DNA from: a bacterium
GTDB taxonomy: Bacteria; Bacillota_I; Bacilli_A; RF39; UBA660
DNA length: 64,000 nucleotides
Direction of reading: 5' to 3'
NCBI GenBank assembly: GCA_030524925.1
Contig: JAUNFS010000001.1
Location: forward strand, 3,963 to 67,962
How positions within the stretch are numbered: position 1 is the stretch's first letter; every line of letters starts with the position of its first letter. The translations under genes were made by a program, and so were the position numbers. Positions 4,573 to 50,381 of the stretch are shown piece by piece. The notes beneath the pieces are model-generated. The model saw only the letters and a list, made by a program, of their open reading frames with translations. It was not told where the DNA came from and searched no databases.

Positions 4573-4600
4573 GTTTTTTCCTCTAGTTAATTATAACAAA

Positions 4601-4630
4601 ATAAAAAAATTCTATAAAGTGCTTATAGAA
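4601..4630 (-). terminator. rho-independent terminator after dnaJ
   Basis: Perfect 8-bp stem TTCTATAA / TTATAGAA (4610-4617, 4623-4630), loop AGTGC. An A7 run on the plus strand gives a U-run on the minus transcript. The stem overlaps the dnaJ stop codon. Confidence 0.5.
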
Positions 4631-29446: not shown

Positions 29447-31156
29447 TTATTTTTTAAAGTCTAAATTTTCATTTATATATTTAATTGTATAGTCTAAGAT
29501 TTGTTCTTTGTTTATATCTAGGCTTTCACTAGAATTTCTTAGTTTGAACTCTACTAGGTTATCTTTAATTTTTTTACCTATAGTTATTCTAATTGGAATA
29601 CCAATAAGGTCTAAGTCGTTAAATTTAATGCCTGGTCTTTCATCACGGTCATCTAAAATAACATCTATATTATTTTTAGTAAATTCTTCGTATAAGTTAT
29701 TTGCAAAAGTAACGCTTTCTTCGTCGTTAGTATTTAGTAGAGCAATAGCTACTTTAAATGGAGCAATATTAAGTGGCCAAATGATGCCTTTTTCATCGTT
29801 ATTTTGTTCAATGTAAGAAGCTAAAATTCTTCCTGGGCCAATTCCATAAGAACCCATAACTACTGGATGGGATGTGTTATTTTCATCTAAATAAGTTAAA
29901 CCTAATTTTTCTGAGTATTTTGTTCCTAGTTTGAAGGTGTTACCTATTTCAATGCCTTTTTTAAAGTAAAGTTTGCCACCACAGGCAGGACAAGTATCTC
30001 CTTCTTCTACATTTACGATATCAGCAGCTAAGTCATATTTAAAGTCTTCTACATTGACATTTATATAGTGGTACCCTTCTTGATTTGCACCTACTACGAA
30101 GTTAGTCATGCTTAGGACTTCTTCATCTATAATGATTTTAGCGCCTTCTAAATTTACTGGACCAGTAAAACCGGGAACTGCATTTGATTTACTAATTAAT
30201 TCATCATCTGCAAAGTTAATTTCTTTACATTTTAATAGTTTAGTTACTTTTACTTCGTTTAAATTACGGTCCCCTCTAACAAAGAAAATAACTAACTCAT
30301 TATCAATGTTCATAAGCAAGGCTTTGACAGTTTTCTTAATATCAATGTTTAAGAATTTAGTTACTTCTTCTATTGTTTGCATGTGAGGTGTTTCTACTAG
30401 TTCTTTTGCTAGTTTTTCTTCTTTAACACTTTTTTCAGGTACATGTTTTGACACTTCTATGTTTGATGAGTAAGAGCATGAATCACATAATACAACTGTA
30501 TCTTCACCAATGTCAGTGATAGCTTGGAATTCTTCAGATAATGAACCACCCATAATTCCAGTGTCTGCTCTTACTATGGCGTAGTTTAAACCGATACGGT
30601 CAAAAATCTTTTTGTAAGCGTCAAACATTTTGTGATATGAAACATCTAGGCCTTCTTCGTCTTTATCAAAAGAATATGCGTCTTTCATTGTAAATTCTCT
30701 TACTCTAATTAAGCCATATCTTGGTCTTGGTTCATCACGATATTTTGCTGCTTGCTGATAGATTGTAAATGGTAAGTCTTTGTAACTTCTTACCATACTT
30801 TTAGCGGCGATAGCAAATAGTTCTTCATGAGTTGGACCTAGAACATAAGGCTTACTATATCTATCTTTTAAGTGAAACATAGAGTCTCCTAGGGCTTCTA
30901 CTCTTCCACAAATTTCATAGTAGTCTTCAGGAATTAATGACGGCATTAAAAGTTCTTCTGCTCCAGCTTTGTCCATTTCTTCTTTGATTATATTTTTAAT
31001 ATTGTTAAATACACGAAGACCTAGAGGCATAAACATATAGATTCCTGAACCTACTTTTTTGATCATACCTGATCTTACTAGTAAATTACCGCTTGTACTA
31101 TCTTCGTCTTTGGCATTTTCTCTTAATGTGTAGAAAAAACTATTTTTTAATTTCAT
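29447..31156 (-). CDS. proS: prolyl-tRNA synthetase, bacterial type with INS editing domain
   Basis: 569 aa with class II motifs and the typical start MKLKNSFFYTLRE...LLVRSGMIKKVGSGIY. Confidence 0.95.
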   Translation of the reverse strand: MKLKNSFFYTLRENAKDEDSTSGNLLVRSGMIKKVGSGIYMFMPLGLRVFNNIKNIIKEEMDKAGAEELLMPSLIPEDYYEICGRVEALGDSMFHLKDRYSKPYVLGPTHEELFAIAAKSMVRSYKDLPFTIYQQAAKYRDEPRPRYGLIRVREFTMKDAYSFDKDEEGLDVSYHKMFDAYKKIFDRIGLNYAIVRADTGIMGGSLSEEFQAITDIGEDTVVLCDSCSYSSNIEVSKHVPEKSVKEEKLAKELVETPHMQTIEEVTKFLNIDIKKTVKALLMNIDNELVIFFVRGDRNLNEVKVTKLLKCKEINFADDELISKSNAVPGFTGPVNLEGAKIIIDEEVLSMTNFVVGANQEGYHYINVNVEDFKYDLAADIVNVEEGDTCPACGGKLYFKKGIEIGNTFKLGTKYSEKLGLTYLDENNTSHPVVMGSYGIGPGRILASYIEQNNDEKGIIWPLNIAPFKVAIALLNTNDEESVTFANNLYEEFTKNNIDVILDDRDERPGIKFNDLDLIGIPIRITIGKKIKDNLVEFKLRNSSESLDINKEQILDYTIKYINENLDFKK

Positions 31157-31364
31157 TTTGATTCCTCCTATTAAAAAAAGAATGATACTAAAGGAGTGCT
31201 AGATAAGCACGGTACCATCCTTATTTTGTCTTAATTTTGATAACGGAATTATCCGAGAATGCTCTAGTTAAGAGTAGGATTTATTATCTTTATCTACCTA
31301 TATTACAGCAGCATAGGCTCTCTTTAAGATTAGTTTTAATAAATATGGCTCTTTAGCAATTTCT
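31157..31364 (-). promoter_or_regulatory. T-box leader (probable Pro specifier CCU)
   Basis: Minus strand contains an AGAGAG box, the T-box sequence AAGGATGGTACCGTGC (plus strand 31207-31222) and a terminator-like helix before a U-run. The candidate specifier CCT followed by A lies at plus 31275-31278. Confidence 0.8.
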
Positions 31365-31370
31365 ATCGTT

Positions 31371-31399
31371 ATTTTAATTGATTTTTCTTAATTAGTCAA
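31371..31399 (-). promoter_or_regulatory. promoter of the proS T-box leader
   Basis: Minus strand reads TTGACT (31394-31399), 17-nt spacer, TAAAAT (31371-31376). Confidence 0.5.
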
Positions 31400-31406
31400 T
31401 AGTTTG

Positions 31407-33932: not shown

Positions 33933-34645
33933 ATGTTAAGCCTCTTTTCTATATATTTTTTTATTTTATTAAAATAATCTTGATAAAAATCTTTATTATC
34001 TAAATTGTCATAGATTTTGTCTAAATATTTAAAGTCATAAATTAATTTTAGAGAATAATCATAATTAATATCATAGACAAATGCCAGTAAGTGTAAGACT
34101 CGGTCAGCATAAGAATGAATATCTTTATTTTTGATAGTAACTTCTTTATTAAATTGTTTTAATACTTTGGGATTGATGATATGTGATTTATCATCGTCGT
34201 ATAGAAAGTGCTGTGATAGTGAATATAAAATATCTATTTTGTCGGCATCTCTAATAATTAAGCAGTATTTATTATTTTTTAGTTTATTAGGTAGTTCTCT
34301 TTTGTTATGATAATATATAGCATCGTATAAGTTTTGTTTATCACTTTCTAGTACGGAATATTCTTTATAGTAATCATTTTTATTTAGTAAATAAACTCCG
34401 TAGTAACCGTGGTCAAAGCCGTTATTGATAAACGAATGAATGGTAGTCCATTCGTAGAATCTTGCTATGTCGTGAAGTAAACCAATTTGAGTTGCTAGTT
34501 TAGTACTATGATAGTCTAAGCCGATGTTTTCTGCAATTCTTTTTGATAAGACTGCTACTCTTTTTGAGTGATAATACTTACGAATTATTGCTTCTTCTTT
34601 TACATCATAATTATTAAATACAAATTCTTCAAATTCCCTATACAT
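33926..34645 (-). CDS. HD-domain phosphohydrolase
   Basis: 239 aa with H...HD (YHSKRVA...GLLHDIARF) and a later DADKID. Its stop overlaps the valS start by 7 nt. Confidence 0.7.
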   Translation of the reverse strand: MYREFEEFVFNNYDVKEEAIIRKYYHSKRVAVLSKRIAENIGLDYHSTKLATQIGLLHDIARFYEWTTIHSFINNGFDHGYYGVYLLNKNDYYKEYSVLESDKQNLYDAIYYHNKRELPNKLKNNKYCLIIRDADKIDILYSLSQHFLYDDDKSHIINPKVLKQFNKEVTIKNKDIHSYADRVLHLLAFVYDINYDYSLKLIYDFKYLDKIYDNLDNKDFYQDYFNKIKKYIEKRLNIC

Positions 34646-34858
34646 TTTATTCTCCTTTAAAAAAATAGTTATAAATGTAAGGGCGTTGTTAACGCGGTAC
34701 CACCTTACTTTTATAACTATAGTTACTCTCTAAATATTTAACGCATATTAACGATTTTTCTCCACTGCAACCTTCTTATTTTTTTATTATTAACTTTCAC
34801 CAGACGTTAACTCTCTATAAATAAAATTAAATAATACTCCTCAGTTTCTCTGAAAACT
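34646..34858 (-). promoter_or_regulatory. T-box leader (probable Val specifier GUU)
   Basis: Minus strand has an AGAGAG box, GGTGAAAG distal-loop motif and the T-box sequence AAGTAAGGTGGTACCGCGTT (plus 34691-34707). A 17/18-bp terminator stem (plus 34665-34682 with 34703-34720) is followed by U7. Candidate specifier is GTT in GAAGGTTGCA. Confidence 0.8.
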
Positions 34859-34864
34859 AGATTT

Positions 34865-37067: not shown

Positions 37068-37937
37068 TTATTTTATTTGATTCATTACTTCTTCGGCAAA
37101 GTTGTCACTTCTATGTTCCATACCTTCACCAACTTCGTATCTAACCATTTTTAAAACTTCGCCACCAGCGTTTTTAACGTAAGTTTTTACATCAATATCG
37201 CCATCTTTAATAAATGGTTCATCTAATAAACAAATTTCTTTGAAGAATTTCTTTAGACGTCCTTCAACCATTTTTTCAGCAATGTCAGCAGGTTTTCCTT
37301 CATTGATTGCTTGTTCAGTAAATACTTTTCTTTCTCTTTCAATTCTTTCAGCGTCAATATCTTCTTCTTTTAAGAATTCCGGTTTCATAGCAGCAGCTTG
37401 CATAGCTACGTCTTTTGCAACTTCACTATTAGCACCTTCTAAAACAGTTAATACAGCAATTTTGCCACCCATGTGCAAATATGTACCAAAGTTTTGACTA
37501 TCAGTTTTAGTAACAACTTCAATTCTTCTTAAAGATAATTTTTCACCAATTTTTGAAGTCTTAGCAATAATTAATTCACTAACAGTTCCTTCACTAACTG
37601 GTAAATTTAATGCATCTTCTAATGTAGTTACATCAGAATTCAAAATAGCATTTCCGATTTCATCAATCATATCTGTAAATTCAGCATTTTTACTTACAAA
37701 GTCTGTTTCAGAATTTACTTCTAATATTACAGCTTTATTAGCATTTGTATAAATATTAGCAAGTCCCTCTGCTGCTATTCTACTTTCTTTTTTAGCAGCC
37801 TTTGCTATGCCTTTTTCTCTTAAGTAATCAATAGCTTTTTCTAAATCTCCATTAGTTTCAGTTAAAGCTTTTTTGCAGTCCATCATGCCTGCTCCAGTTT
37901 TACTTCTTAATTCAGCTACGCTTTTAGCATCTATCAT
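37068..37937 (-). CDS. tsf: elongation factor Ts
   Basis: 289 aa with an N-terminal UBA-like segment, [19 protein letters not shown]. Confidence 0.95.
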
Positions 37938-37955: not shown

Positions 37956-38888
37956 TTATTTTAATGCTTGTAATAGTTCATCTTTTTTCATTGATGAATA
38001 ACCTTTAATTCCTCTTTTTTTAGCAACTTGTTTTAATTCTGCTAGAGTCTTTAAAGTTAAATCTTCATCTTCAATGCTTTTTTCTTCTTTGATTGCTTCT
38101 TTAGTTTTTTCGTCTTCTAAGCTTTCAACAAATACTTCTTTTACAGTTTTTGCTGGTTTTTCGCTCTTTTTAGTTTTGTCTTCTTCAGTAACATAGTCAA
38201 TTAATTCTAAGCCACGAGATTCACAAATAGCGTTTGTTAAAACTCCTAAAACAACTTTAACACTTCTTACAGCATCATCATTACCAGGAATTACAAAGTC
38301 AACATCATCTGGATCACAGTTTGTATCAACTAGACCAAATACTGGAATATTTAGTTTTCTTGCTTCACGAATTGCATTGATTTCCTTTTTAGGATCTACA
38401 ATAATTAAAGCATCTGGTAATTTTTCCATATTACGAATGCCACATAATACTTTATTTAATTTTTCGTATTCTTTTCTTAATCCGATAACTTCTTTCTTAG
38501 GTAATACTTCAAAAAGTCCATCGTTTTCCATTTTTTCAATTTCTTCTAAACGTTTAATTCTCTTACGAATTGTACGGAAGTTTGTTAATGTTCCACCTAA
38601 CCATCTTTCAATTACGTAGAATGAATTACTTCTTTCTGCTTCTTCTTTAGCAGCTTCGTTAGCTTGTTTTTTAGTACCAACAAATAAGAAATTACCTCCG
38701 TTATCTGCAATTTTTTTAATTTCTGCATAAGCACTTTCAATACATGCAGCAGTTTTTTCAAGATCAATAATATAAATATCATCTCTTGATGTAAAGATGT
38801 ATTCCTTCATTTTAGGATTCCATCTTTTTGTTTGATGTCCGAAATGAACACCTGCTTCTAATAAATAACTCATAGAAACAACAGCCAT
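37956..38888 (-). CDS. rpsB: 30S ribosomal protein S2 with C-terminal Rho_N/SAP-like extension
   Basis: Track ORF trimmed to ATG 38886-38888 ([27 protein letters not shown]), preceded by an AAAGGAAAG RBS. The C-terminal 70 aa or so are an acidic linker plus [31 protein letters not shown]. Confidence 0.95.
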
Positions 38889-39002
38889 TATAATCACTTT
38901 CCTTTCGTTAATTACCCATAAGTATCTTCTTAAATCACCAACCACTGGCCACTAGGTAATTTAATCCACTTATGTACATATTGGTTTTTTAAAACCAAGA
39001 AT

Positions 39003-39045: not shown

Positions 39046-39627
39046 TTAAGCAATTATATTGTTGTTTTCATCAAAGGGAACTTCAAGACATTTACGGCTT
39101 GCTAGATAATCGCACATGTGAACAAAACTCTGATATTTATTTTTAGGAGTTTCTAAAACTACATTACCGTTAAAATCAGTGTTGTATGGTCCCATGTGGG
39201 TTTTAATTACGTCACTAATGAATTTGGCATCTACTAAGTTTAATTTAAAGGTTTGATAGTTATCTAAAATAAAATTAGCCATTAAAATTGGATGGTCTAC
39301 CCTAGTATATTTTTCTTCAGTTAAGCCTCGTTTTAAGCCATCATGAACAAGTAAGCTAAGTAATAACATATCTTTTTCTCTTGGAGAGTATTTACTACCT
39401 ATTAAGGGATTGTTTAGTAGTTCTAAACCTATTTTGGTAGCGGCTTTGCTGTGTCTTAAAAGACCTCCATCACCAATGGCATATTTTGGATGATACTTAC
39501 CAGTGCTTGATGCCGCTTCATGAAAGAAATAATCTGGTAACTTGTCTACAATTAACTTTAGGCTTTCTTTTAAATTGGCATTTTTAATATAATTTATTTC
39601 TACACTAAATATTTCTACTTTATTCAT
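39046..39627 (-). CDS. HD-domain hydrolase, third gene of the methyltransferase-nuclease operon
   Basis: 193 aa with SSTGKYHP...LRHS...LLVHDGLKRG...HMCDYL (H, HD and D ligands). AAGGAA RBS; 18-nt gap from the upstream gene. Confidence 0.65.
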   Translation of the reverse strand: MNKVEIFSVEINYIKNANLKESLKLIVDKLPDYFFHEAASSTGKYHPKYAIGDGGLLRHSKAATKIGLELLNNPLIGSKYSPREKDMLLLSLLVHDGLKRGLTEEKYTRVDHPILMANFILDNYQTFKLNLVDAKFISDVIKTHMGPYNTDFNGNVVLETPKNKYQSFVHMCDYLASRKCLEVPFDENNNIIA

Positions 39628-39645
39628 TTAAATTCCTTCTTTATA

Positions 39646-40335
39646 TTATGCTAGTTCTAATTCTTTATCAGGCGATTTTGTAACACTTTTAATTGCGTTA
39701 TAATCTTTAAGATCTATAAGCGTTTCTGGTGTTAATTTATTAAATGCTCTACTTTTTTCTCTTAAAATATCTCTTACTTCTTCTTTAGTTTTATTAACTG
39801 CTATTATTTTAAATCCATATTTAAATACTAAGGTTGATAAAGATATTGACTGAGTACTTCTAACTGTATGGCCATCTTTAAACCAAGCTATTTTCTCTTC
39901 TAAGAATTCACCGATAGCTTTATTTTGACCAAAGCAAATAAATAATAAATTACTAGCATCTTGCCATACTGCTAATGCTAAAAATACTTTTTCATCTTTA
40001 AATGCATCTGCTTTTTCAAATGTTGTATCATTGAAAGTTGCTTGCCACGATTTAGCCATAAAGCTTGCTGATTTTACTTCTAAATAATAGTCTTCACCAT
40101 TTGAAGATAATTTACAATCAAACCCGTGTTTTTCTACATTTACTTCATTAAAACCTAAAGTATAGCCAGCAATAGAGTCTCTTAACTCATTAATAAATGT
40201 ATCTGTATCATCTTTTTGATATTTGCGCTGAACAGCTTCTACTTGTTTTAATACTTCGTGGCCTTCAAACATAAAATTTTTATTTATAGGGTTAAATGTT
40301 CCTTTTGAAAATAGTGATAAATCTTTATTATCCAT
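39646..40335 (-). CDS. putative type II restriction endonuclease (PD-ExK)
   Basis: 229 aa, 13 nt downstream of the methyltransferase. It has a candidate PD-(D/E)xK core, GFDC ... YLEVKSA. No other recognisable family. Confidence 0.45.
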   Translation of the reverse strand: MDNKDLSLFSKGTFNPINKNFMFEGHEVLKQVEAVQRKYQKDDTDTFINELRDSIAGYTLGFNEVNVEKHGFDCKLSSNGEDYYLEVKSASFMAKSWQATFNDTTFEKADAFKDEKVFLALAVWQDASNLLFICFGQNKAIGEFLEEKIAWFKDGHTVRSTQSISLSTLVFKYGFKIIAVNKTKEEVRDILREKSRAFNKLTPETLIDLKDYNAIKSVTKSPDKELELA

Positions 40336-40348
40336 GTTACTTCACTCC

Positions 40349-41539
40349 TTATTTCATATCGCATTTAATAAAATCTATTTCTTTTTTATTCCTTTTTAAA
40401 TATTTTTTTAATCTAAATAATAGAATTTCATCTACTGATGGTGGTATATTAAATTCTTCACAAATTTTGTATACTTTACTTTTGGGATTAACCTTTTCAT
40501 CTAACTGAATTAATACGTATTTAAGTTTTTTGTTGTCTTCAGCGTTAACTTCGTAGATAGCTTGGGCAAGAGAACCTGAGCCAGCAAAGTAATCTAAAAC
40601 TATATCATCTTTCTTAGTGGATATTCTAATTAAAAACTTTAACATGTCAACTGGCTTTGGGGTGTCAAAAATATTGCTAATTCCTAATTTTTTTAAGTCG
40701 TTGGTCCCTTGTCTAGAATAAAATTTTAGCATAGAAGGAACATTATCTTCTGATTCAGTCAAATAGTGTTTACTATATGGTCTGCCATCTTTAAAACATA
40801 GTCGGTTTTGTTTTGCTAAATCTATAAATTTTTTATCGCTGGACCATCCTCTAGTTGGTAATGGTTCTAATTCTAGATCAATTTCAGGAATAGAAACTTT
40901 TCTTGGTTTTCCGGGAGTAGATAAGTCTACCGGGAAATAAATATTGCCTTTTTCATCCACATTAGAATAGTTTTTTAACCAAGTTATGTTGTAATTATAA
41001 CAATAATTCTTAATTATGTCTTTTAATTTTTTGTTAGCAGCTTCTAGGCCTTCTTTATTTAAAATTTTTTTAATTTCACGATGAAGATTATCTATCATTT
41101 TCTTTTGTTCAGGAATTTCTAAACGGTTAATTACAAATTTGTGAAGCTTTTTTTTATTTTTAGCAAAACATAAGATATATTCATGAACTGTGTTAATATG
41201 TTTGGCATTACTACGCTGAGATTGCTGGGTTATAAATGTTCCAACAAAATTTTCTTTACCAAATACATTATCACAGATTATTTTTAAGTTAGCATACTCA
41301 TTATCATCAATACTAATAAATATTACGCCATCATTTTTTAAGAATTTACTTGATGCACTGATTCTTTTTTTGATGTAATCTTTCCAATCCTTACTAGATA
41401 TTTTATCATTATAACTTTTACTTTCATTGGTATTATATGGAGGGTCTATGTAAATCATTTTGATTTTGCCAATATATTTTTTGAAGCTTTGGCTATTCAT
41501 GATTTTTAAATTGTCTCCTATATATATTTCGTTTGTCAT
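40349..41539 (-). CDS. beta-class N6-adenine or N4-cytosine DNA methyltransferase
   Basis: 396 aa. Motif IV IYIDPPYNT near the N-terminus and motif I DYFAGSGSLAQA near the C-terminus give the beta-class permutation. Confidence 0.85.
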   Translation of the reverse strand: MTNEIYIGDNLKIMNSQSFKKYIGKIKMIYIDPPYNTNESKSYNDKISSKDWKDYIKKRISASSKFLKNDGVIFISIDDNEYANLKIICDNVFGKENFVGTFITQQSQRSNAKHINTVHEYILCFAKNKKKLHKFVINRLEIPEQKKMIDNLHREIKKILNKEGLEAANKKLKDIIKNYCYNYNITWLKNYSNVDEKGNIYFPVDLSTPGKPRKVSIPEIDLELEPLPTRGWSSDKKFIDLAKQNRLCFKDGRPYSKHYLTESEDNVPSMLKFYSRQGTNDLKKLGISNIFDTPKPVDMLKFLIRISTKKDDIVLDYFAGSGSLAQAIYEVNAEDNKKLKYVLIQLDEKVNPKSKVYKICEEFNIPPSVDEILLFRLKKYLKRNKKEIDFIKCDMK

Positions 41540-42231: not shown

Positions 42232-43968
42232 TTAGATACTCTTACCGTTTACATATAATTTATAGCCATTTAAATCTATGTTACTGTTAGTTGTATCTTC
42301 GTTATCTAATGATGTTATGTATGTGTCCTTTGTAAGTTTAATTTTAGATGTTTTATCAAGTTTTAATATTACGTTTTCAGCAGTGTTTTCATTATTGATT
42401 GCTCCTTCAATTACAGAGTTTTTTGTAGCATTAATAGTTATAGAACTTATACTATCTAAGACTGTGTCGCCTGACACTGTCTGATTTTTTAAATTTAGGG
42501 TTATGTCTGCACCATTACTGCCACTTGTACCCCATGAGCTTCCTTCTGCTCTTAGAAAACATCCTGTTTTATCATTATTTTTAAAAGTAGTATTTTCTAG
42601 GGTAATTGAAGCTTTAGTGTTTGTTAAATAAAAGGTATCACCTTTATTAGTCGTTATTTTGCTATCAGTACTTGAAAAGTTAGATTCACCAGTAGATGCA
42701 TCACCACTCATTGACTGATAAATAAAAATATTTTTATAGGTTTTAGATAAACCATTTAACTGATTATTTGTGTCACTTAGTTCAACGTTATTTAATGTAA
42801 CACTATTTTTTCCTTCTATTACTACGCCTTCACTAGCAGTAGATATTAGTTTAGCATCAGAAACTGTAATACTCGCTGTACTATAGATACTTGGTGAGCC
42901 TTTTCCCGTAGTTTTATATGTACCACCCTTAATTATAAGTGTACCACCACCTCTATCGCTTCTAATTGCTGCTGATGAAGTTCCTGCTGTATTTACTGTT
43001 AAATTATTTCCGTAAAGTGTACCGCCACCTGTAACCATGACACCTCCTGAATTATCTTTGGATGTGGTGATTTTAGAATTATTTATGGTGATACTTGTGC
43101 CATCGGTTTGACTATTATTAGTTGTGACACTTCCACCATAGCTAAAAACTCCGTTTGCACCAGTGGCATCGGTTTTAATTTCTGAGTTATTTATTAGAAC
43201 ATTTGCGCCATCTTTGGCAAGGACTGCTGAATTATTACCATAAAAACTGGTATTATCTCCACCGTCGGAATCACCGGTTTTAGTAACAGTAATAGACTCA
43301 GCACTAACACTAACATCGCCACTAATTAGCATGGCATTTTCATCACTTTGTGAGCTTGTAAATGTTTCATTAGTAAAATCTTTATTTTCAGTTATTTCAT
43401 TTTTTGAGGAATAAGTTATATTTGTATTTGTGCTAGGCATACCTTGGTTATTACTTTTGCTACTAAATTGTGCGTTTAAGAATGTTATAAAGATAGTTAG
43501 GATGATACTAGAAAGAACATAGATAATTATTTTATCGCTATTTATAAATGTGTTTGCTATACTTGCTTTATTAAATTTAGATAAAATTAAATAAAATACT
43601 GTAAGGGATAATCCTAAAGCACATACTCTAGTAACTAGATAATATCTCCAAGATATTTGGTTATTGTTTTCCTGCATATCGTTCATGTCTTCTCCGGGAG
43701 TCGGAGCGTTGTTATCTTCCCCGTCAGGTTTTGCTGGAGGAGTATTTACTCCATTGCCATTTTCATTTTGTCCGCTTTCGTTTTCATTCGGTTTATCTGG
43801 AATTTCGCCACCTGTTTGATTATCGTTTGGGGTTTCTACATTTGGCATATTCCCATTCATTGCTCCTTGATTATTAGTCTCTTTTGATGATAGAGTCATA
43901 TAAACAATACCACTTGTAAATAGAACTATTAAAATAATAGAAATTAAATTTTTAAGCCATCTTTGCAT
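42232..43968 (-). CDS. membrane-anchored surface protein with parallel beta-helix-like repeats
   Basis: 578 aa. Order is a TM helix, an N/G/P/E-rich low-complexity segment, two further hydrophobic helices, then about 400 aa of degenerate NNSxI/T..G..G repeats typical of right-handed beta-helix surface proteins. Confidence 0.5.
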   Translation of the reverse strand: MQRWLKNLISIILIVLFTSGIVYMTLSSKETNNQGAMNGNMPNVETPNDNQTGGEIPDKPNENESGQNENGNGVNTPPAKPDGEDNNAPTPGEDMNDMQENNNQISWRYYLVTRVCALGLSLTVFYLILSKFNKASIANTFINSDKIIIYVLSSIILTIFITFLNAQFSSKSNNQGMPSTNTNITYSSKNEITENKDFTNETFTSSQSDENAMLISGDVSVSAESITVTKTGDSDGGDNTSFYGNNSAVLAKDGANVLINNSEIKTDATGANGVFSYGGSVTTNNSQTDGTSITINNSKITTSKDNSGGVMVTGGGTLYGNNLTVNTAGTSSAAIRSDRGGGTLIIKGGTYKTTGKGSPSIYSTASITVSDAKLISTASEGVVIEGKNSVTLNNVELSDTNNQLNGLSKTYKNIFIYQSMSGDASTGESNFSSTDSKITTNKGDTFYLTNTKASITLENTTFKNNDKTGCFLRAEGSSWGTSGSNGADITLNLKNQTVSGDTVLDSISSITINATKNSVIEGAINNENTAENVILKLDKTSKIKLTKDTYITSLDNEDTTNSNIDLNGYKLYVNGKSI

Positions 43969-44065: not shown

Positions 44066-44093
44066 TAAAACCCCTTACATTATGTAAGAGGCT
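44066..44093 (-). terminator. terminator closing the 48.3-44.1 kb operon
   Basis: Stem CCCCTTACA / TGTAAGAGG (44071-44079, 44083-44091; 8 of 9 positions pair, one internal mismatch), loop TTA. An A4 run on the plus strand gives a U-run on the minus transcript. Confidence 0.45.
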
Positions 44094-44104
44094 TTAAATG
44101 TTTT

Positions 44105-44300
44105 TTTTAAATTTTTAATGATCTTCGTGATATTATCAATTATTCCATTATATCCATAACAGATTATTTTATTATTTTTAACTATTACAGCACCTACTCC
44201 CTAATTTACAAGAAGAATATTTATGGGCAATATCGTGTGCAATATTCATCGCAGATTCATCACTACCGTCATATAATACATTTAACTCACTTAATTCTTT
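44105..44300 (-). pseudogene. dCMP/cytidine deaminase (ComEB-like) N-terminal remnant, frameshifted and truncated
   Basis: Hand translation of the minus strand gives ...DGSDESAMNIAHDIAHKYSSCKL. After a frame change near 44203-44215 it continues GVGAVIVKNNKIICYGYNG. The HAE and PCxxC zinc motifs that should follow are absent. Confidence 0.5.
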
Positions 44301-44305
44301 AATTA

Positions 44306-45580
44306 CTATTTTCTCCTTAGTATCACAATAAATCTATTGCTTAAATTTTTATTGTAAGCGCTAAAATCAAAGTCGCCAAACACATCAACTACTTCGTAAT
44401 ATTCACTTACTAGATTTTTAATTTCATCAAGAGTATAAAATCTGACGAATTCATCATCAAAATAAAATTGTTTGTTTTCATTATCTTTTATAAAATATAA
44501 ATATTGAGAATTTTGGATATTGTTAATAATGTATTTGTTTACAATTAATTCTATCTCAATGCCATTATTGATATTATTTCTTTTGTATACTCTTCTATTA
44601 TTTAATCTAGGAATATTTTTTGAATCCAATACCATTATAGCACCCTCATGTTGATGATTATAATTAGATTTGATAAAGCTAACAAAATCTTTGTCTTGAG
44701 AAAGATAATTATATGTAGTCCACATACATATTGACATATCATATTTTCTTTCTGGTAAAGAGATGTTTCTAACATCCATAACATGATAGTTTGCGTTTTT
44801 ATGACTATGAATTTTTTTGGCATTAGTTATTTGTTCTTCTGAAATATCAATTCCTGTCACTTGATATCCGGCATTTGCTAGCAAATAATCATGACGACCT
44901 ACTCCACAACAGCAGTCAAGTATTTTCCCGTTTTCTGGTAAGCCATATTTTTTATATATTTCTGATAAAAAATTTGTTTCTAAAGATGTATCGTTAGCAA
45001 TTGCATACATGTAATACTTTGATAAATCGTTATATAATAATTTATTTTTTGCGTGTTCAGTAAAACTTATATTCCTAAATTTAGATAAATCTCCTTGTAA
45101 ATTTATAGGTAAATATATAATATTGCCATTTTGAATAATTGTATCCTGTTCATGATTAAAATATAGAATCCAATCATATTTTGAAGAAATAGAATTTAGA
45201 TATTCGTCTTTAGAATTATATTTACTGATGTCATCTTTAGAAATTATAGTATCAAATATATCCATAATACCAAATTTTTGCATATCGCTTAGTAATCTGC
45301 TTTTCTTTGACAATGATAGTACATTTATTTTATAAAAACTGCTTAATTTTTTAGCAAAATCTATATTCTCATTAATTGGATTTAGATAATTTCTATATAA
45401 TTCTTCTGCCTCTTCATAATCAAGATTGTATTTTTTACATATTATTTTTTTTGACAATCCGCTATTATAATCTTTTTCTACTTCTTCTTTTGATTCTGTT
45501 AATTGTTTTAATGCTTTTATCCATGCACTTTTTGCGTCGACAAATATGTCATGAAAATCAAAAAATATTTTTAAGTTCAT
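44306..45580 (-). CDS. class I SAM-dependent methyltransferase fused to an uncharacterised N-terminal domain (weakly HAD-like)
   Basis: 424 aa. The C-terminal half has motif I ILDCCCGVGRH, motif II VTGIDISEEQI and HVMDVRN. The N-terminal 200 aa or so start IFFDFHDIFVD, which is not a canonical DxDxT. The ATGA overlaps the radical SAM stop. Confidence 0.7.
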   Translation of the reverse strand: MNLKIFFDFHDIFVDAKSAWIKALKQLTESKEEVEKDYNSGLSKKIICKKYNLDYEEAEELYRNYLNPINENIDFAKKLSSFYKINVLSLSKKSRLLSDMQKFGIMDIFDTIISKDDISKYNSKDEYLNSISSKYDWILYFNHEQDTIIQNGNIIYLPINLQGDLSKFRNISFTEHAKNKLLYNDLSKYYMYAIANDTSLETNFLSEIYKKYGLPENGKILDCCCGVGRHDYLLANAGYQVTGIDISEEQITNAKKIHSHKNANYHVMDVRNISLPERKYDMSICMWTTYNYLSQDKDFVSFIKSNYNHQHEGAIMVLDSKNIPRLNNRRVYKRNNINNGIEIELIVNKYIINNIQNSQYLYFIKDNENKQFYFDDEFVRFYTLDEIKNLVSEYYEVVDVFGDFDFSAYNKNLSNRFIVILRRK

Positions 45581-46653
45581 TTTTCACCCTCCATTATTTT
45601 TTCTGAGTAAGTATTTTCTCTAATTTTAGCTTTAACATTAAGATTTAATATATGTTTGATATATGATTTTTGTTCATCATTTAATAGACCATCAATTAAT
45701 AAAGTTCCTTCTTTTAACTCCCAATTGGAGTTTATCCCAATTTTACTTAGTCTAGATTCTAAATCTACTGGTTCCTTGCAAGTAATATTATGACATAATT
45801 CATAGTTTTTACATAATTTTGAGCAACTATTCTTAGAGTAATGCAAATTGTAATCTGGAAACTTAAAAATATAACTCAAGGCACAAGATGTGTGATCAAA
45901 TATTTGGTAGTTCTTATTTTCAAGTTTTAATTGTTCAAATATTGCATCTGTGGTGGTGCTTTTTTGTTTGTGTGAATCTCCAATTTTACCAGTATATGTA
46001 TAATCTCTTTCTTCTAATCTATCTTTTATAAAATCGTTTACTCTAATGCCTTGGAAAATTGTTGCTACACAATATTTTTTCGCGTAATCAATTATTTTTC
46101 TAATTGTGCATTCATCATCGTTTACTCCTGGGATAATTGGTCTAAATTGGTGTAATAAATACACATGTTTGCATTTTGAAATATGTTTCATTGTTTTTTC
46201 TTGAATATTTTTATTAATTGGTTGTATTTTTAGCGGAATACCATTATAAGTTACAATAATGACAATTCTAATATTGCTATACTCATCTAATTTTTTTGCA
46301 TCTTCTTCTGTTAATAATCCTTTAGTAGTTATAGTAACAATATTTTTAAGATTTAGTTCTTCCATTATATCTAACAGTTTAAATGTACTATTTTTAACTT
46401 CTTGTGATATAAATGGATCTGTTCTATTGTTTAAAGAAATAATTGTTTTATCTTTTACAAAATATTTATCTTTGATCATATTATCTACCAAAGTTTCTTC
46501 TTCTATAACTTTTATCGGCCTCATTGGTACAATTTTGATTGGAGCCAAAAAACAATATCCACAGTTTATTGTACATCCTATATATGAATTAATTGAGTAA
46601 TATGATTTTAAATATTCTCTTGTTAACTTTTTTAAATCAATTTCTTCTTTCAT
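45577..46653 (-). CDS. radical SAM enzyme, SplB/COG1533-like core with C-terminal Cys cluster
   Basis: 358 aa with a CxxxCxxC box in SYIGCTINCGYCFLAP, followed by NNRTDPF and TITTKG segments as in the photolyase-like rSAM family. C-terminal CSKLCKNYELCHNITC. The start ATG directly abuts the upstream TAA. Confidence 0.8.
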   Translation of the reverse strand: MKEEIDLKKLTREYLKSYYSINSYIGCTINCGYCFLAPIKIVPMRPIKVIEEETLVDNMIKDKYFVKDKTIISLNNRTDPFISQEVKNSTFKLLDIMEELNLKNIVTITTKGLLTEEDAKKLDEYSNIRIVIIVTYNGIPLKIQPINKNIQEKTMKHISKCKHVYLLHQFRPIIPGVNDDECTIRKIIDYAKKYCVATIFQGIRVNDFIKDRLEERDYTYTGKIGDSHKQKSTTTDAIFEQLKLENKNYQIFDHTSCALSYIFKFPDYNLHYSKNSCSKLCKNYELCHNITCKEPVDLESRLSKIGINSNWELKEGTLLIDGLLNDEQKSYIKHILNLNVKAKIRENTYSEKIMEGEK

Positions 46654-47691
46654 TTATTTTCCTCCTAATCTGTCAAACGATAAAATATCATAATCTTTAA
46701 TCTTTAAATTATTATATAAACTTAAAATTCTAACAATGCTAATGCCTAAATTATAGCATTGTGGAGCGCCAGAATCAATTAAGTCTTCAAGAGTTTGCAA
46801 TTCTCCGTAATTATCTTTTTTCCCCTGCAAATTTATTTTTTTTATATATTCATCATGATTGCATATTTCACTCACTCCATGAATTATTGTTACCCTGTTG
46901 TATTTTACTTTAAATTCATCAGCTTTGTTATTTTCAAGCGTACCACAATAACTATTTGTTGAGTTAGAATAATTACTAATTATATAAAAAGTTCCATCTT
47001 TTGGAATAATTTTATTATAAACGCCCTCATCAACAAAACTACATTTTATCTTACTATCTGTTATAATTTTTAGGATTCTTAAGGCTAACTTTATAGCACT
47101 ATTTTTATCTAAATAATTACTGAAGATAGAAAGCATTTCAAACTCAGGTTTATATTTGCTGGTAAGATATTCATTCCTGTAGCAGTTTCCTATACAATAT
47201 ATTTTATTAAAACCACAGCAAGAATACATTCTTAAAAATACATCCATAGTTTTTCTAAGATATAATTTGACATTCTTTTTTGAATATAAAGTACTAAACG
47301 ATTCAGATTTTGATGATATTTCCCCATCAGTTAAAATTGGTAAAGCAACCTCTAAGTAACCTAATTTATGGAGATATTTTCTTATCTCATATTTAATATC
47401 ACTATATTTTATTATGTTTGTCTTATTAATCGTTAATTTATAATTTTTTTGATTTTTACTAATTATTTTTAAATTTTTAAGTAAATAAGAATTATATATT
47501 GGTTTATATTTACCATTGTTATTTTTGTCTTTTGTAACTGAGCAAGATACTATATCACCGATATTTAAATTAGTTATAAAATAATCAATGTTATCCTTTA
47601 TAACGACCTGGGTTATTTTATAATTTTCAATTAGTAAGAATAGTACATTTGTCTTTGATTTTATATTTGTGATTTTTCCACATATTTTCAT
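46654..47691 (-). CDS. truncated LysRS-like class IIb aminoacyl-tRNA synthetase paralog
   Basis: 345 aa. It has an N-terminal OB-fold pattern (ICGKITNIKSKTNVLFLLIENYKITQVVI...IGDIVSCSV), motif 1 IRKYLHKLGYLEVALPIL, motif 2 CYRNEYLTSKYKPEFEMLSIF and motif 3-like LGISIVRIL. GGAG RBS. Confidence 0.7.
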   Translation of the reverse strand: MKICGKITNIKSKTNVLFLLIENYKITQVVIKDNIDYFITNLNIGDIVSCSVTKDKNNNGKYKPIYNSYLLKNLKIISKNQKNYKLTINKTNIIKYSDIKYEIRKYLHKLGYLEVALPILTDGEISSKSESFSTLYSKKNVKLYLRKTMDVFLRMYSCCGFNKIYCIGNCYRNEYLTSKYKPEFEMLSIFSNYLDKNSAIKLALRILKIITDSKIKCSFVDEGVYNKIIPKDGTFYIISNYSNSTNSYCGTLENNKADEFKVKYNRVTIIHGVSEICNHDEYIKKINLQGKKDNYGELQTLEDLIDSGAPQCYNLGISIVRILSLYNNLKIKDYDILSFDRLGGK

Positions 47692-47716
47692 TTTTTACTC
47701 CAATTCATTTATTTTT

Positions 47717-48262
47717 TTAAAAATCTTTTATTATATTTTTTCCGGATGTTTCTTGTGCAAATAATTCAAGAATATAGTTAGTTAAATTTAATAGACAGTT
47801 AAAGTCATGTGCAAATTTATTAATTAATTGTTTTAAAACATCATACGCGTAATCAAATTCAATTTTAGTAATTTCTTTTTTTTGAAGAGCATCAAATAGT
47901 TCATCTTCATCAAGTACTGTAAAATCTCTCGCTGGTGTAATAACCAAATCTAAATATAAGTCGTCTTGATACGGTATAGAACAGTTACCATCAGCAAATT
48001 TTGAGACATCAAAATACCACTGTATAATATTAAGCTTATTATCAAACATGATAGTTAATAGGTAAGATTTTTCATTAGGATAAAATTCAAACCAAACGTA
48101 GTCTTTATTTTTTATACATAGTTTTGATTTTTCGCTTTCAACAAAAGAAGGAATTATGTTCGAACCAAATTTTATATAATAAACTGTTCCTTTGATATTT
48201 TTATAATTAAGACTTTTTTTTAAAAAATTTGCTTCTTTTATCTTTGAAAATTTTCTTTTCAT
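47717..48262 (-). CDS. DUF402-family protein (nucleoside di/triphosphatase or FomD-like hydrolase family)
   Basis: 181 aa. WYFDVSKF...YQDDLYLDLVITPARDFTVLDEDELFDALQKKEI matches the DUF402 core pattern. First gene of the operon. Confidence 0.6.
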   Translation of the reverse strand: MKRKFSKIKEANFLKKSLNYKNIKGTVYYIKFGSNIIPSFVESEKSKLCIKNKDYVWFEFYPNEKSYLLTIMFDNKLNIIQWYFDVSKFADGNCSIPYQDDLYLDLVITPARDFTVLDEDELFDALQKKEITKIEFDYAYDVLKQLINKFAHDFNCLLNLTNYILELFAQETSGKNIIKDF

Positions 48263-48313
48263 GTTTGGAACTCCAATTTCTAATTAAATTTTTTGTTTTT
48301 GACTTTTTTATAT

Positions 48314-48370
48314 ATTGTATTATAAAGTTAAATAAAAATACAACCTTCATTTAGAAAAAATTTGGGTTGT
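48314..48370 (-). promoter_or_regulatory. thrS terminator-like hairpin overlapping a candidate promoter of the DUF402 operon
   Basis: Stem ACAACC / GGTTGT (48340-48345, 48365-48370) with a 19-nt loop, then a U-rich run on the minus strand. Minus strand also reads TTGTAT (48338-48343), 18-nt spacer, TACAAT (48314-48319). Confidence 0.3.
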
Positions 48371-48408
48371 CTATATTTTTTCTTTAATTATTTTAAAATT
48401 GTATTAAG

Positions 48409-50154
48409 TTAAATATTGTATTTTTTATTTTTAATGCATTCTTCTACTTTATTAACAAAGTCTTCAATGCTTAGATTTTTAGTTTCAGTTTTGCCGTATT
48501 CACGATAGCTTACTGTTTGGGTATTAACTTCATTATCACCAATAATTAGTGTTAGTGGAATTTTCTTAGTTTGACTTTCACGCATTTTGTATCCTAATTT
48601 TTCGCTTCTGTCGTCTAGTTTTGCTCTAATATTATTGTTAGTTAATTCTTCTAATATTTTGTTACTATATTCTAAATGATATTCATTATTAACTGGAATA
48701 ATATTAACTTGTACAGGAGACAACCAAAGTGGGAATGCTCCAGCATAATGCTCAATTAAAATTCCTATAAATCTTTCTATTGAACCATAAATTACGCGAT
48801 GAAGCATTACAGGTCTTTTTTTGCTTCCGTCTGAATCAATGTATGTTAGATCAAATCTTTCAGGTAAATTCATGTCCAATTGAATGGTTCCACATTGCCA
48901 TACTCTTCCTAGAGAATCTTTAATATGAAAATCAAGTTTAGGGCCATAAAAAGCTCCATCTCCAGGATTTATTTTACAACTGTGTCCTGCTTTGTGACAA
49001 GCGTCTTCTAAAGCCTTTTCTGATTTATTCCATACGTCGATACTTCCAATAAATTTTTCCTCTGGCCTTGTAGACAATTCGATATCATATGTCAAATTAA
49101 AAATTGAATACATTCTATCAATAAAACTGATTAATCTAATTACTTCTTCTTCAATTTGATCTTCTCTCATAAATATGTGAGCGTCATCTTGAGTAAATGT
49201 TCTTACTCTGAAAAGTCCATTTAGGGCACCGCTTGCTTCATGTCTATGAACTTGTCCAAGTTCGCCTATTCTTAGTGGTAAATCTTTGTATGAGTGTAAT
49301 GAGTTTTTATAAACTAGCATTCCACCTGGGCAATTCATTGGTTTAATAGCAAATATCTTTTCATCTATTTCACTTGTATACATATTCTCCCTATAGTTAA
49401 ACCAATGGCCGGATAGTTCCCATAGTTCTTTATTTAGCATTATTGGAGTTTTAATAAATTCATAACCTTCTTTAGTGTGTTCTTCATACCAAAAGTTTTC
49501 AAGATTATTTCTTAATATCATTCCATTATTTAGGAAAAATGGAAATCCTGGGCCATATTCACTCATCATAAATAAATCTAATTCTTTTCCTAGTTTTTTA
49601 TGATCTCTTTTTTTGGCTTCTTCTAAGAAATTTAAATGTTCGTCTAAAGCTTCTTGAGTATCAAAGCATACACCATAAATTCTTTGAAGCATTTTGTTTT
49701 TAGCGTCGCCTTTCCAGTATGCCCCACTAACTTTTAATAGTTTAAAGTATTTTAATTCTTTAGTTGTTTCAACGTGTGGTCCACGACAAAGATCAGTAAA
49801 GTCTCCTTGAGTATACATTGAGATGATTGTATTGTTTTCATCCATACGACTAATTAAATCAATTTTATAAGGATCATCTTTAAATTTTTCTAAAGCTTCT
49901 TCCTTAGTGATTTCTTCACGAACAATTCTTTTACCATCTTTGCTAACTTTTTTCATTTCTTTTTCAATTTTAGGTAAATCTTCATTTGTTAGTGTAACAT
50001 CTCCTAGGTCAATATCATAATAGAAACCATCATCTATTACTGGACCTACCCAAAATTTAGCATTTGGATATAAATGTTTTACTGATTGCGCTAAAAGGTG
50101 TGCACAACTATGGTTTAATATGCTTAATTTTGCATCTTCTTTAATGTTTATCAT
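48409..50154 (-). CDS. thrS: threonyl-tRNA synthetase lacking the N-terminal TGS domain
   Basis: Track ORF trimmed to ATG 50152-50154 (MINIKEDAKLSILNHSCAHLLAQ), which follows AAGGAGGAA. The upstream 14 codons overlap the T-box terminator. Class II motifs and the editing-domain HxxxH are present. Confidence 0.95.
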   Translation of the reverse strand: MINIKEDAKLSILNHSCAHLLAQSVKHLYPNAKFWVGPVIDDGFYYDIDLGDVTLTNEDLPKIEKEMKKVSKDGKRIVREEITKEEALEKFKDDPYKIDLISRMDENNTIISMYTQGDFTDLCRGPHVETTKELKYFKLLKVSGAYWKGDAKNKMLQRIYGVCFDTQEALDEHLNFLEEAKKRDHKKLGKELDLFMMSEYGPGFPFFLNNGMILRNNLENFWYEEHTKEGYEFIKTPIMLNKELWELSGHWFNYRENMYTSEIDEKIFAIKPMNCPGGMLVYKNSLHSYKDLPLRIGELGQVHRHEASGALNGLFRVRTFTQDDAHIFMREDQIEEEVIRLISFIDRMYSIFNLTYDIELSTRPEEKFIGSIDVWNKSEKALEDACHKAGHSCKINPGDGAFYGPKLDFHIKDSLGRVWQCGTIQLDMNLPERFDLTYIDSDGSKKRPVMLHRVIYGSIERFIGILIEHYAGAFPLWLSPVQVNIIPVNNEYHLEYSNKILEELTNNNIRAKLDDRSEKLGYKMRESQTKKIPLTLIIGDNEVNTQTVSYREYGKTETKNLSIEDFVNKVEECIKNKKYNI

Positions 50155-50381
50155 ATTCTTTTCCTCCTTAAAATAAAAACTCCTTGCATTACGCAAGGAG
50201 TGCTAAAACACGGTACCATCCCTATTTTTACTTAATTATGATAACGGCTTATGCCGGGGTTCTTTTTCAAGACCAGTTCATAGGTAGTAAAAATATTTGT
50301 TCTTAAGTTATCTTTCACCGTCATAACCTCGCTTAAATAAGAATTAAAATACTTCCATGTCCTAATCAAAACATTTAAAAC
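50155..50381 (-). promoter_or_regulatory. T-box leader (probable Thr specifier ACU)
   Basis: Minus strand has the GGTGAAAG distal-loop motif and the T-box sequence AAATAGGGATGGTACCGTGT (plus 50208-50223). Terminator stem is CTCCTTGC / GCAAGGAG (50180-50187, 50193-50200) plus a U-run. Candidate specifier ACT followed by A is at plus 50285-50288. Confidence 0.8.

Follow-up and report, generated by a model that had tools for sequence, protein, structure and literature searches.

We found that four adjacent genes in a 64,000-nucleotide stretch of an uncultured Bacillota genome (GenBank assembly GCA_030524925.1, contig JAUNFS010000001.1, positions 3,963 to 67,962; this whole stretch is called the window below) form a functional, selected unit, and that an accessory cassette of gut Bacillota, rare and horizontally mobile, has them as its core. 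The genes encode a DUF402-family protein, a paralogue of class IIb aminoacyl-tRNA synthetases (aaRS), a divergent radical S-adenosylmethionine (SAM) enzyme (rSAM) and a fusion of a HAD-like domain with a class I SAM methyltransferase (HAD-MT) (Table 1). We rate the cassette as an undescribed variant of the nucleotide-based antimetabolite or conflict cassettes, with a combination of enzymes that has no characterised counterpart. The reading that we favour, tentatively and by way of the neighbouring genes, is that the cassette makes a modified conjugate of an amino acid and a nucleotide, a mimic of an aminoacyl-adenylate, which would serve as an antimetabolite in microbial conflict.

Cassettes with an aaRS paralogue of the kind found in the window are called type A here, and their loci (L numbers) were found by looking up gene neighbourhoods and with a map made by tblastn. 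The genes for the aaRS paralogue, rSAM and the HAD-like protein (with or without methyltransferase) adjoin one another in 14 type A lineages (40-98% identity), about half of which have an intact gene for the zinc deaminase of which the window retains a remnant. A preliminary description of this DNA, made from its letters alone, had proposed one system of four genes and had named two tests, co-occurrence in other genomes and the absence of already characterised housekeeping functions. The adjacency of the trio answers the former, and no such function fits any of the genes, with all NCBIfam equivalog scores far below their cutoffs. Several type A cassettes are headed by a DUF402 protein or a NUDIX hydrolase (the latter at the DUF402 position in L024; a GNAT-DUF402 fusion in L005). 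In the closest relatives (81% identity) the order is rel, DUF402, a second rSAM (x289), aaRS paralogue, rSAM, HAD-MT, deaminase and thrS. The product of x289, a gene that the window lineage lacks, shows weak NirJ/SPASM-type and viperin-type matches (viperin 16.7 bits, cutoff 180). The deaminase is absent from L003 and L023 and present only as a remnant in L011, and L022 and L012 are decayed copies of the cassette.

The position of L019 and L020, where a minimal module (aaRS paralogue, rSAM, HAD-MT and deaminase) lies between serine recombinase genes in GC-rich flanks, shows that the cassette is mobile; recombinases are also present in L005, L007 and L027. Among about 185,000 species genomes a scan with the aaRS paralogue returned three true members and a scan with rSAM one more, and among about 30 relatives with a 70-86% identical threonyl-tRNA synthetase (ThrRS) the cassette was found in two, both Hadza metagenome-assembled genomes (MAGs). 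Searches for viral carriage gave no relative in IMG/VR (a single match, 23% over a fragment) or in the GenBank phages, and a phage origin of the cassette was rejected on these grounds. Searches for carriage on plasmids, by DNA and with the aaRS paralogue protein, matched true lysS genes only. The cassette-less relatives yielded no insertion borders, there being no synteny around thrS in the clade.

A sister strain, L123, was found on a contig from another, independent sample, with an rSAM 99% identical to that of the window. The order in L123 is thrS, DUF402, aaRS paralogue, rSAM, HAD-MT, an intact deaminase of 150 aa and then the same downstream genes as in the window. Relative to this contig the deaminase gene of the window has suffered a frameshifting deletion of 14 nt and a deletion of about 304 nt that removes the CAE...PCxxC catalytic core; with the L001 deaminase as a tblastn query, the window matches at 81% over 32 aa, after which the frame changes. 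The decayed dCMP-deaminase-like fragment of the preliminary description is thus confirmed, and its loss in the window lineage is recent. Intact orthologues carry the motifs CYGDCAEKRA...SPCxSCC and extra Cys pairs, and their score against the ComEB/dCMP deaminase equivalog (69.7 bits, cutoff 219) makes them of a distant ComEB/dCMP type. The comparison with L123 also gave pN/pS ratios of 0.10 for the aaRS paralogue, 0.08 for rSAM and 0.08 for HAD-MT, from which we conclude that these core genes are under purifying selection, and of 0.40 for the less constrained DUF402 gene. The window copy is a reduced cassette, with the second rSAM absent and the deaminase recently deleted, and is therefore less valuable as a type example than the L001/L043 version, which is to be preferred for study; if the window copy makes a product at all, this may not be the same as that of the complete cassette.

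In the window the four open reading frames (ORFs) are intact, closely packed and translationally coupled on the minus strand (44306-48262): a 25-nt gap with GGAG separates the DUF402 gene from that of the aaRS paralogue, the TAA of the latter directly abuts the ATG of the rSAM gene, and the rSAM and HAD-MT genes overlap by ATGA. These junctions, as well as the position between rpsB and thrS, are as first described, and the AT-richness that had been judged by eye was confirmed by calculation (GC content of 44066-48343 0.243 versus 0.296 in the remaining window, second lowest in rank among 299 segments of equal size), with only a slight difference in GC at third codon positions. The downstream terminator also stood (-16 kcal/mol, z = -6.2, none of 200 shuffles as stable, followed by a U-run); it is kept in L123 with a compensatory change of a C-G to a U-A pair in the stem. 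The proposed upstream hairpin did not, since it is no better than shuffled sequence (-8.3 kcal/mol, z = -1.2). The gap between thrS and the DUF402 gene contains no minus-strand promoter match of at least 9/12.

The 345-aa aaRS paralogue had been described as a class IIb adenylating enzyme that resembles lysyl-tRNA synthetase (LysRS), and this holds: it matches Pfam tRNA-synt_2 (87 bits, 1.3e-24), has a weak OB fold at residues 2-62, and its AlphaFold2 model (pLDDT 88.5) finds class II LysRS as the best solved fold (TM-score 0.75-0.79). It is no bona fide class II LysRS, however, as it scores 69.6 bits on the LysRS equivalog TIGR00499 (cutoff 427.6) and matches with its residues 85-268 only, against a full length of about 490 aa for LysRS, whereas a true LysRS from L039 scores 670.8 bits. 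The EpmA/GenX equivalogs gave 37.3 bits (TIGR00462, cutoff 286.9) and 56 bits (NF006828, cutoff 264). The paralogues make up a family of about 36 clusters at 40-98% identity, followed by a gap until the true LysRS at about 27%. Residues R172 and E174 of motif 2 (R172-N-E174) and R321 of motif 3 are invariant in 25 family members and so is D150, the acid at the alpha-amine position, which argues for a live adenylating enzyme; the paralogue is presumed to be an active amino-acid adenylating ligase. In Escherichia coli LysU, E278 and E428 bind the epsilon-amine of lysine; together with Tyr280 they were taken as marks of a true LysRS. The paralogue has an invariant S188 in place of E278 and F190 in place of Y280, and keeps E275 as the equivalent of E428. 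As the epsilon-amine site is lost, the amino acid of type A is probably not lysine. Ser188 is found in type A, L027 and L028, whereas the paralogues of type B, a second kind of cassette, keep both acidic residues; the amino acid of type B may be lysine. Every paralogue has HG at the position of AN in LysRS, and all have kept the OB domain, which is of the anticodon-binding type.

Of all the parts of the cassette, rSAM is the most conserved. Its score on Pfam Radical_SAM (26.7 bits) is just below the cutoff of 29.5, but its CX3CX2C motif (C27/C31/C34) is invariant, as is the motif NNRTDPF, and its AlphaFold2 model (pLDDT 92.6) has spore photoproduct lyase (SPL) as the nearest solved fold (TM-score 0.50, E = 3e-5) and only radical SAM enzymes among the top fold matches, so that motif and barrel fold place it in the superfamily. 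It has a distinct C-terminal domain, and four additional cysteines (C257, C277, C281 and C287) are also invariant, which suggests a second (auxiliary) Fe-S cluster. The extra Cys cluster of the preliminary description thus stands, whereas the SplB/COG1533-like assignment holds at a distance only: rSAM scores 22.4 bits on the NCBIfam PA0069 family (cutoff 360) and 12 bits on that of Rv2578c (cutoff 430), and it does not belong to the SPL/PA0069-type COG1533 family. Equivalog, sequence and fold searches gave no KamA/EpmB-type aminomutase match for rSAM, and neither rSAM nor the second rSAM of its relatives had a useful match by sequence among solved structures.

The methyltransferase of the fourth gene was recognised before (Methyltransf_25, residues 220-301, 54 bits), and the N-terminal domain, then without an assignment, now proves to be an atypical HAD-like domain (HAD_2, residues 5-121, 24.7 bits, cutoff 23.8); the HAD-like part extends over residues ~1-160 and the class I SAM methyltransferase over ~200-420. 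The signature of HAD phosphatases (DxDx(T/V), in which the second Asp is the general acid/base, and an acidic motif IV) is absent. Motif I is an invariant D8-x-H10, W20, S89 and D99 are invariant too, and type A has FNHE where type B carries GNDxDED. The HAD part occurs without the methyltransferase in L005, L007, L028 and the type B loci. The DUF402 assignment of the first gene was upheld (Pfam DUF402, 42.1 bits, 1e-10, cutoff 23.9). The protein is a probable nucleotide phosphohydrolase by family, it scores 16 bits on the equivalog of the CMP-conjugate hydrolase FomD (cutoff 320), and the first cassette gene of L001/L043 encodes an orthologue of 68% identity.

The rSAM search reaches 84 clusters, and relatives at 30-58% identity keep the same partners. 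L027 has a permuted order (rSAM, HAD-MT, a 444-aa aaRS paralogue, Peptidase_S66, NUDIX, GNAT, a 129-aa protein, GNAT, NUDIX/HD and a recombinase), yet the same three core genes, and L028 has the aaRS paralogue, rSAM and HAD with an S51 peptidase alongside. The S66 peptidase of L027 has its nearest relatives among MccF-like proteins, with matches to BA_5613 of B. anthracis (2e-82) and MccF of E. coli (5e-30), as compared to 1e-12 to 1e-19 for murein LD-carboxypeptidases, and GNATs were found in L027, L005 and L037. Type B consists of an aaRS paralogue (386 aa), a B12-type radical SAM enzyme (419 aa), an SPL-like rSAM (342 aa), HAD (183 aa), a methyltransferase (305 aa) and Peptidase_S51 (219 aa), and shares the parts list of type A at about 30% rSAM identity; the S51 peptidase ends every full-length type B cassette. 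In related gut Bacilli, types A and B both directly follow the same rel gene (~70% identical). A conserved frame that would include an AMP-binding gene downstream of thrS or lysK was dropped, as that gene is about 24% identical and the rel anchor alone is orthologous.

Further away in the family the partners change. In Selenomonas a thymidylate-kinase-like gene, which matches PDC-M51B of PADLOC and the viperin-associated kinase VakA, replaces the aaRS paralogue, and the second rSAM of type B matches PDC-M51A weakly. Full-length rSAM homologues on plasmids (26-29% identical; L124-L127 of Streptomyces, Nostoc, Agrobacterium and Roseibium) occur in trios, together with genes for a DEDDh 3'-5' exonuclease and a P-loop ATPase of ~195 aa, with thymidylate synthase, nucleoside diphosphate kinase (NDK) or HD genes sometimes or often present. 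The trio of Agrobacterium vitis lies in a defence island, with an anti-phage dGTPase, a GIY-YIG nuclease and WYL and TIR genes around it; the rSAM and the ATPase of the plasmid trio have no match in PADLOC v2. A profile search of 1.84 billion representatives returned 883 rSAM relatives at E<=1e-3, 160 of them at E<=1e-30, and fused members of the superfamily carry TIR, nucleoside 2-deoxyribosyltransferase, TCAD9 plus kinase, or GT2. With DUF402, NUDIX, CDA/dCMP-type deaminase, thymidylate-kinase-like, NDK, thymidylate synthase and HD genes as accessories across the family, the theme of the superfamily is nucleotides and biological conflict. In Selenomonas and relatives (L025, L026, L033 and L034) the rSAM module consists of x193, x199, the thymidylate-kinase-like gene, rSAM and a 320-aa methyltransferase and directly follows an HSP70-like gene and a 1099-aa HerA-like gene; it appears to be a candidate defence system in its own right that uses the same rSAM.

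We also found that many cassettes are linked to a full-length synthetase gene. In 9 of the 14 type A lineages (one of them a MAG labelled Oscillospiraceae) thrS adjoins the cassette, on either side, which is notable because nothing else around thrS is syntenic in these genomes; the cassette has no other conserved neighbour. In type B a bona fide class I LysRS (415 bits, cutoff 147.55) follows the S51 peptidase in all four Bacilli loci with enough flank, and with L039 included a class I LysRS is adjacent in five of five such loci. In L039 (a Lachnospiraceae MAG, 3352-7142) greA, a class II lysS (671 bits) and a class I lysK (392 bits) precede the cassette; its class I LysRS, fused to a C-terminal tRNA-binding domain of the Trbp111/MetG-C type, is an extra copy, as it lies beside the canonical greA-lysS pair. 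A true class II lysS is found at a distance of 5 kb from L028.

The thrS of the window has a T-box leader of its own (RF00230, 70.4 bits, E = 3.3e-14, below the Rfam gathering score of 93), the terminator hairpin of which (-14.4 kcal/mol, z = -2.9) overlaps the listed TTG start at 50196, making ATG 50154 the likelier start of thrS. The ThrRS is 77-86% identical to that of cassette-less relatives (in a scan that returned 80 loci), and in a rough neighbour-joining tree the ThrRSs of genomes with and without a cassette interleave; given these results and the T-box, a role of this gene as a resistant paralogue borne by the cassette was rejected. The ThrRSs linked to L008, L012, L022 and L023 are 42-52% identical to that of the window (53-60% for those of other phyla in the scan) and lie on long, deep branches in the same tree. 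No tRNA_SAD domain was detected in that of L008, and each of the four may be a second copy with a specialised role. The window contains no tRNA gene and none adjoins any of 18 cassette loci, and a genetic-code expansion like that of pyrrolysine, with a dedicated tRNA, was rejected for this reason.

How could these parts work together? In the reading that we favour, rSAM (or both radical SAM enzymes) and the methyltransferase would remodel a nucleotide, perhaps a pyrimidine nucleotide, of which the HAD-like domain and the DUF402 or NUDIX protein would adjust the phosphorylation state; the aaRS paralogue would activate an alpha-amino acid with ATP and join it to this nucleotide, and the deaminase, the S51 and S66 peptidases, the GNATs and the linked synthetase would protect the producer. 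Synthesis of an aminoacyl-nucleotide fits best because it accounts together for an adenylating paralogue, radical and methyl chemistry, enzymes that trim the phosphates of nucleotides or deaminate cytosine, enzymes of detoxifier classes and a linked synthetase. Detoxification of the microcin C aminoacyl-nucleotide is documented for the S66 peptidase MccF, the S51 peptidase MccG and the GNAT MccE (PMC9239234), and it is well established that the gene cluster of an aaRS inhibitor may include a resistant copy of the aaRS, as with agrocin 84 (PMC5059758) and albomycin (PMC9032320). A precedent for a very compact cluster is thmABC for 4'-thiothymidine, in which a radical SAM enzyme is combined with a nucleoside kinase and with an NTPase, the latter being the resistance gene (PMC12691670). 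The general model of the preliminary description, in which the paralogue activates an amino acid, radical and methyl chemistry follows and other enzymes process a nucleotide, is in line with the conserved motifs and the nucleotide-related accessories. It had left the choice between a metabolite, a conflict system and a modification of tRNA or of the EF-P type undecided, and the evidence leans to a conflict or secondary-metabolite role and away from a modification of tRNA or EF-P.

Several observations weigh against our reading. The functional steps have all been inferred from neighbour genes. Phosphatase activity is uncertain in view of the non-canonical D-x-H in motif I of the HAD-like domain, and the OB domain kept by the paralogue suggests binding of nucleic acid. 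The window has no S66, S51 or GNAT gene, and its thrS is an ordinary housekeeping orthologue rather than a dedicated resistant paralogue; as thrS, valS and proS all lie within 21 kb of the window, some of the proximity to aaRS genes may be no more than background. Exporter, regulator and precursor peptide are lacking in every cassette, short precursor ORFs not having been searched systematically, and such a lack is unusual for a secreted antibiotic. Lastly, distant rSAM relatives lie in defence islands, which would fit an anti-phage role equally well. A more specific proposal, that we consider rather unlikely, is that the cassettes are modular pathways to aminoacyl-adenylate mimics by a route unrelated to those of microcin C, albomycin and agrocin: the paralogue would set the amino acid, rSAM, HAD and methyltransferase would make the nucleotide non-hydrolysable, and the linked synthetase would be an insensitive one (ThrRS in type A; in type B a class I LysRS that stands in for a sensitive class II enzyme). 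If so, aaRS inhibitors and their resistance genes would come here as a naturally 'programmable' set.

Because of these defence-island relatives, an intracellular anti-phage role is a serious rival, although a somewhat unlikely one. The cassette would then make a modified nucleotide inside the cell as prokaryotic viperins do, with rSAM producing from an NTP or dNTP an analogue that is toxic to the replication or transcription of phages, while kinase, NUDIX, DUF402, HAD and deaminase would control the pool or protect the host and the paralogue would add an amino acid or act as sensor or effector. The plasmid trios, the defence island of A. vitis, the matches to PDC-M51B, VakA and (weakly) PDC-M51A and the fusions to TIR and to TCAD9 plus kinase all point this way, as do the missing exporter, the patchy and mobile distribution and the slot after rel, which types A and B fill in related genomes like alternative islands. 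The core itself is less accommodating, since PADLOC v2 gave no match for rSAM, the paralogue or the DUF402 protein and only a generic mad2 methyltransferase for HAD-MT, the neighbourhood in the window is not a defence island, and the searches of phage and IMG/VR contigs yielded no counter-defence relative. Moreover, an anti-phage role leaves unexplained both the link to thrS or class I lysK and the set of S51, S66 and GNAT enzymes, which points to an aminoacyl-carboxamide bond.

Translation offers further alternatives. It is improbable that the cassettes modify tRNA or aminoacyl-tRNA, tRNA-Thr in type A and tRNA-Lys in type B, with the OB domain docking on the anticodon loop, the paralogue adding an amino acid to a nucleoside, rSAM and the methyltransferase elaborating the result, and the neighbouring synthetase accepting the modified tRNA. 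There is a precedent in GluQRS, a GluRS paralogue that aminoacylates queuosine in tRNA-Asp, the modification of tRNA often involves radical SAM enzymes and methyltransferases, and the OB domain in all paralogues and the persistent link to thrS or lysK would be explained. Nevertheless, the cassette is too rare and patchy for a function in translation (2 of about 30 close relatives), there is no tRNA gene beside any cassette, copies flanked by recombinases occur without any aaRS gene, and the accessory enzymes (NUDIX, DUF402, deaminase, thymidylate kinase, S51/S66) act on small molecules. Decidedly improbable is the biosynthesis of a non-proteinogenic analogue of threonine or lysine, in which the editing domain of the adjacent ThrRS or a more discriminating class I LysRS would guard translation and the paralogue would make a pro-form, either a dipeptide or an acyl-adenylate. 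Amino acids are among the substrates that radical SAM enzymes and methyltransferases are able to remodel, the type member of S51 is an aspartyl dipeptidase (PMC9239234), and genes for translation quality control do mark clusters for amino-acid antimetabolites, for instance the BesG deacylase in that of beta-ethynylserine, which ThrRS mischarges (PMC13149037); however, nucleotide enzymes (DUF402, NUDIX, deaminase, kinases, NDK) dominate the accessory set, and pyridoxal-phosphate enzymes, aminotransferases or other genes of amino-acid pathways occur in no cassette. A protein modification of the EF-P type is very improbable indeed, and so is an adjacency of unrelated genes by chance, which the conservation of the set in 14 lineages and in both types excludes. 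The partner of EpmA is a radical SAM enzyme too, EpmB, and the paralogue does match EpmA/GenX weakly (56 and 37 bits), but these scores are far under the cutoffs (264 and 286.9), EpmA has no OB domain, and rSAM lacks a KamA/EpmB-type match.

The inferred class of product, an amino acid joined to a decorated nucleotide, is similar to that of microcin C, agrocin 84 and albomycin. Cassette variants (L027, type B, L028, L005 and L037) carry enzymes of the S66 MccF, S51 MccG and GNAT MccE classes, a full-length aaRS stands beside the cluster as with AgnB2 of agrocin 84 and AbmK of albomycin, the albomycin pathway likewise combines radical SAM enzymes, a methyltransferase and a nucleoside kinase, and these Trojan-horse clusters and the cassettes both lie on mobile elements. 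However, microcin C has MccB and MccA, whereas the genes scanned in the cassettes contain no ThiF/MccB-type domain and the ligase is a LysRS-derived class II protein; rSAM is unrelated to AbmM and AbmJ of albomycin by the searches made; and, unlike the Trojan-horse inhibitors, the cassettes come without siderophore or peptide carrier or exporter, in uncultured gut Bacillota. With class II LysRS the paralogue shares the fold, an N-terminal OB domain, motifs 2 and 3 and the acid for the alpha-amine, but LysRS is about 500 aa long, and the paralogue lacks the insertion between motifs 2 and 3, has Ser for the Glu of the epsilon-amine and HG for AN, and scores 5- to 8-fold under the cutoffs of the LysRS and EpmA equivalogs. 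From EpmA (GenX/PoxA) it differs by its OB domain and by the KamA-type aminomutase partner, which was not found in the cassette. SPL and the COG1533 proteins (PA0069, Rv2578c) have the nearest solved fold, share CX3CX2C with rSAM and include its weak match to PA0069; the low TM-score, the four extra invariant Cys, the distinct C-terminal domain and the lack of a link to DNA-repair genes set rSAM apart. The combination of a radical SAM enzyme with a nucleotide kinase, phosphatase or NTPase is shared with thmABC, viperins, PDC-M51 and Ophion, which have no aaRS paralogue or HAD-like partner and whose models the core rSAM does not match.

The literature searched (aaRS-like proteins, radical SAM enzymes, nucleoside antibiotics, self-resistance, MccF, conflict systems and SPL homologues) offered analogies and no description of this gene set. 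Together with the lack of a fit in PADLOC or NCBIfam and of a close solved rSAM structure this is why we rate the cassette as undescribed, and the statement in the preliminary description that it knew of no characterised pathway with this combination can be kept. If our reading holds, Bacillota that are common in the human and animal gut, though uncultured, carry a compact, transferable pathway to a new chemical class of translation inhibitors or antiviral nucleotides, with a new enzyme chemistry that involves an aaRS paralogue, a new radical SAM family and a D-x-H HAD-like domain. A defined minimal set of four to six genes and candidate resistance genes are now available, and the link with type B raises a testable idea on why some Bacillota keep a class I LysRS. 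Whatever the product, a radical SAM superfamily of about 900 clusters, absent from the current catalogues of defence systems and protein families, is hereby tied to nucleotide metabolism and conflict.

Table 1. Features of the cassette and its surroundings in the window
Feature	Position	Strand	Remarks
DUF402-family protein, 181 aa	47717..48262	-	Probable nucleotide phosphohydrolase; first gene of the cassette in the window lineage
Class IIb (LysRS-derived) aaRS paralogue, 345 aa	46654..47691	-	Small OB domain and shortened catalytic core
Divergent radical SAM enzyme (rSAM), 358 aa	45577..46653	-	Predicted auxiliary Fe-S site
Fusion of HAD-like domain and class I SAM methyltransferase (HAD-MT), 424 aa	44306..45580	-	
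Remnant of CDA/dCMP-type zinc deaminase, inactivated	44105..44303	-	From tblastn and alignment with L123
Intrinsic terminator of the cassette unit	44066..44096	-	Hairpin followed by UUUU
Intergenic region between thrS and cassette	48263..48408	-	Weak hairpin and U-run (48340-48370); ribosome-binding site upstream of DUF402
thrS, housekeeping threonyl-tRNA synthetase	48409..50196	-	No TGS domain
T-box leader of thrS	50193..50378	-	RF00230; terminator at 50179-50201
rpsB, flank of the accessory stretch opposite thrS	37956-38945	-	

Several other genes of the window deserve mention. Directly downstream of the cassette, and conserved in L123, lies a gene for a secreted or membrane-anchored protein of 578 aa (42232-43968, minus strand) with an Asn/Gly/Pro-rich low-complexity N-terminal region and a right-handed beta-helix domain. 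The accessory stretch also holds a gene for an N6/N4 DNA methylase (40349-41539, minus strand) with two small ORFs downstream on the same strand (229 and 193 aa; region 39046-41539); no restriction partner is obvious, the two ORFs not having been scanned against family libraries, and the methylase may be an orphan or part of a novel restriction-modification module. Ribosomal protein S2 (329 aa), encoded by rpsB and followed by tsf (37068-37937), has an uncommon C-terminal Rho_N-like domain (residues 295-328, E = 1.3e-9). Another T-box leader (34676-34859, minus strand, 109.5 bits) precedes genes for an HD-domain protein (33926-34645), ValRS (31407-33932) and ProRS (29447-31156); it is unusual for an aaRS operon under T-box control (29447-34859) to start with a gene for an HD protein.

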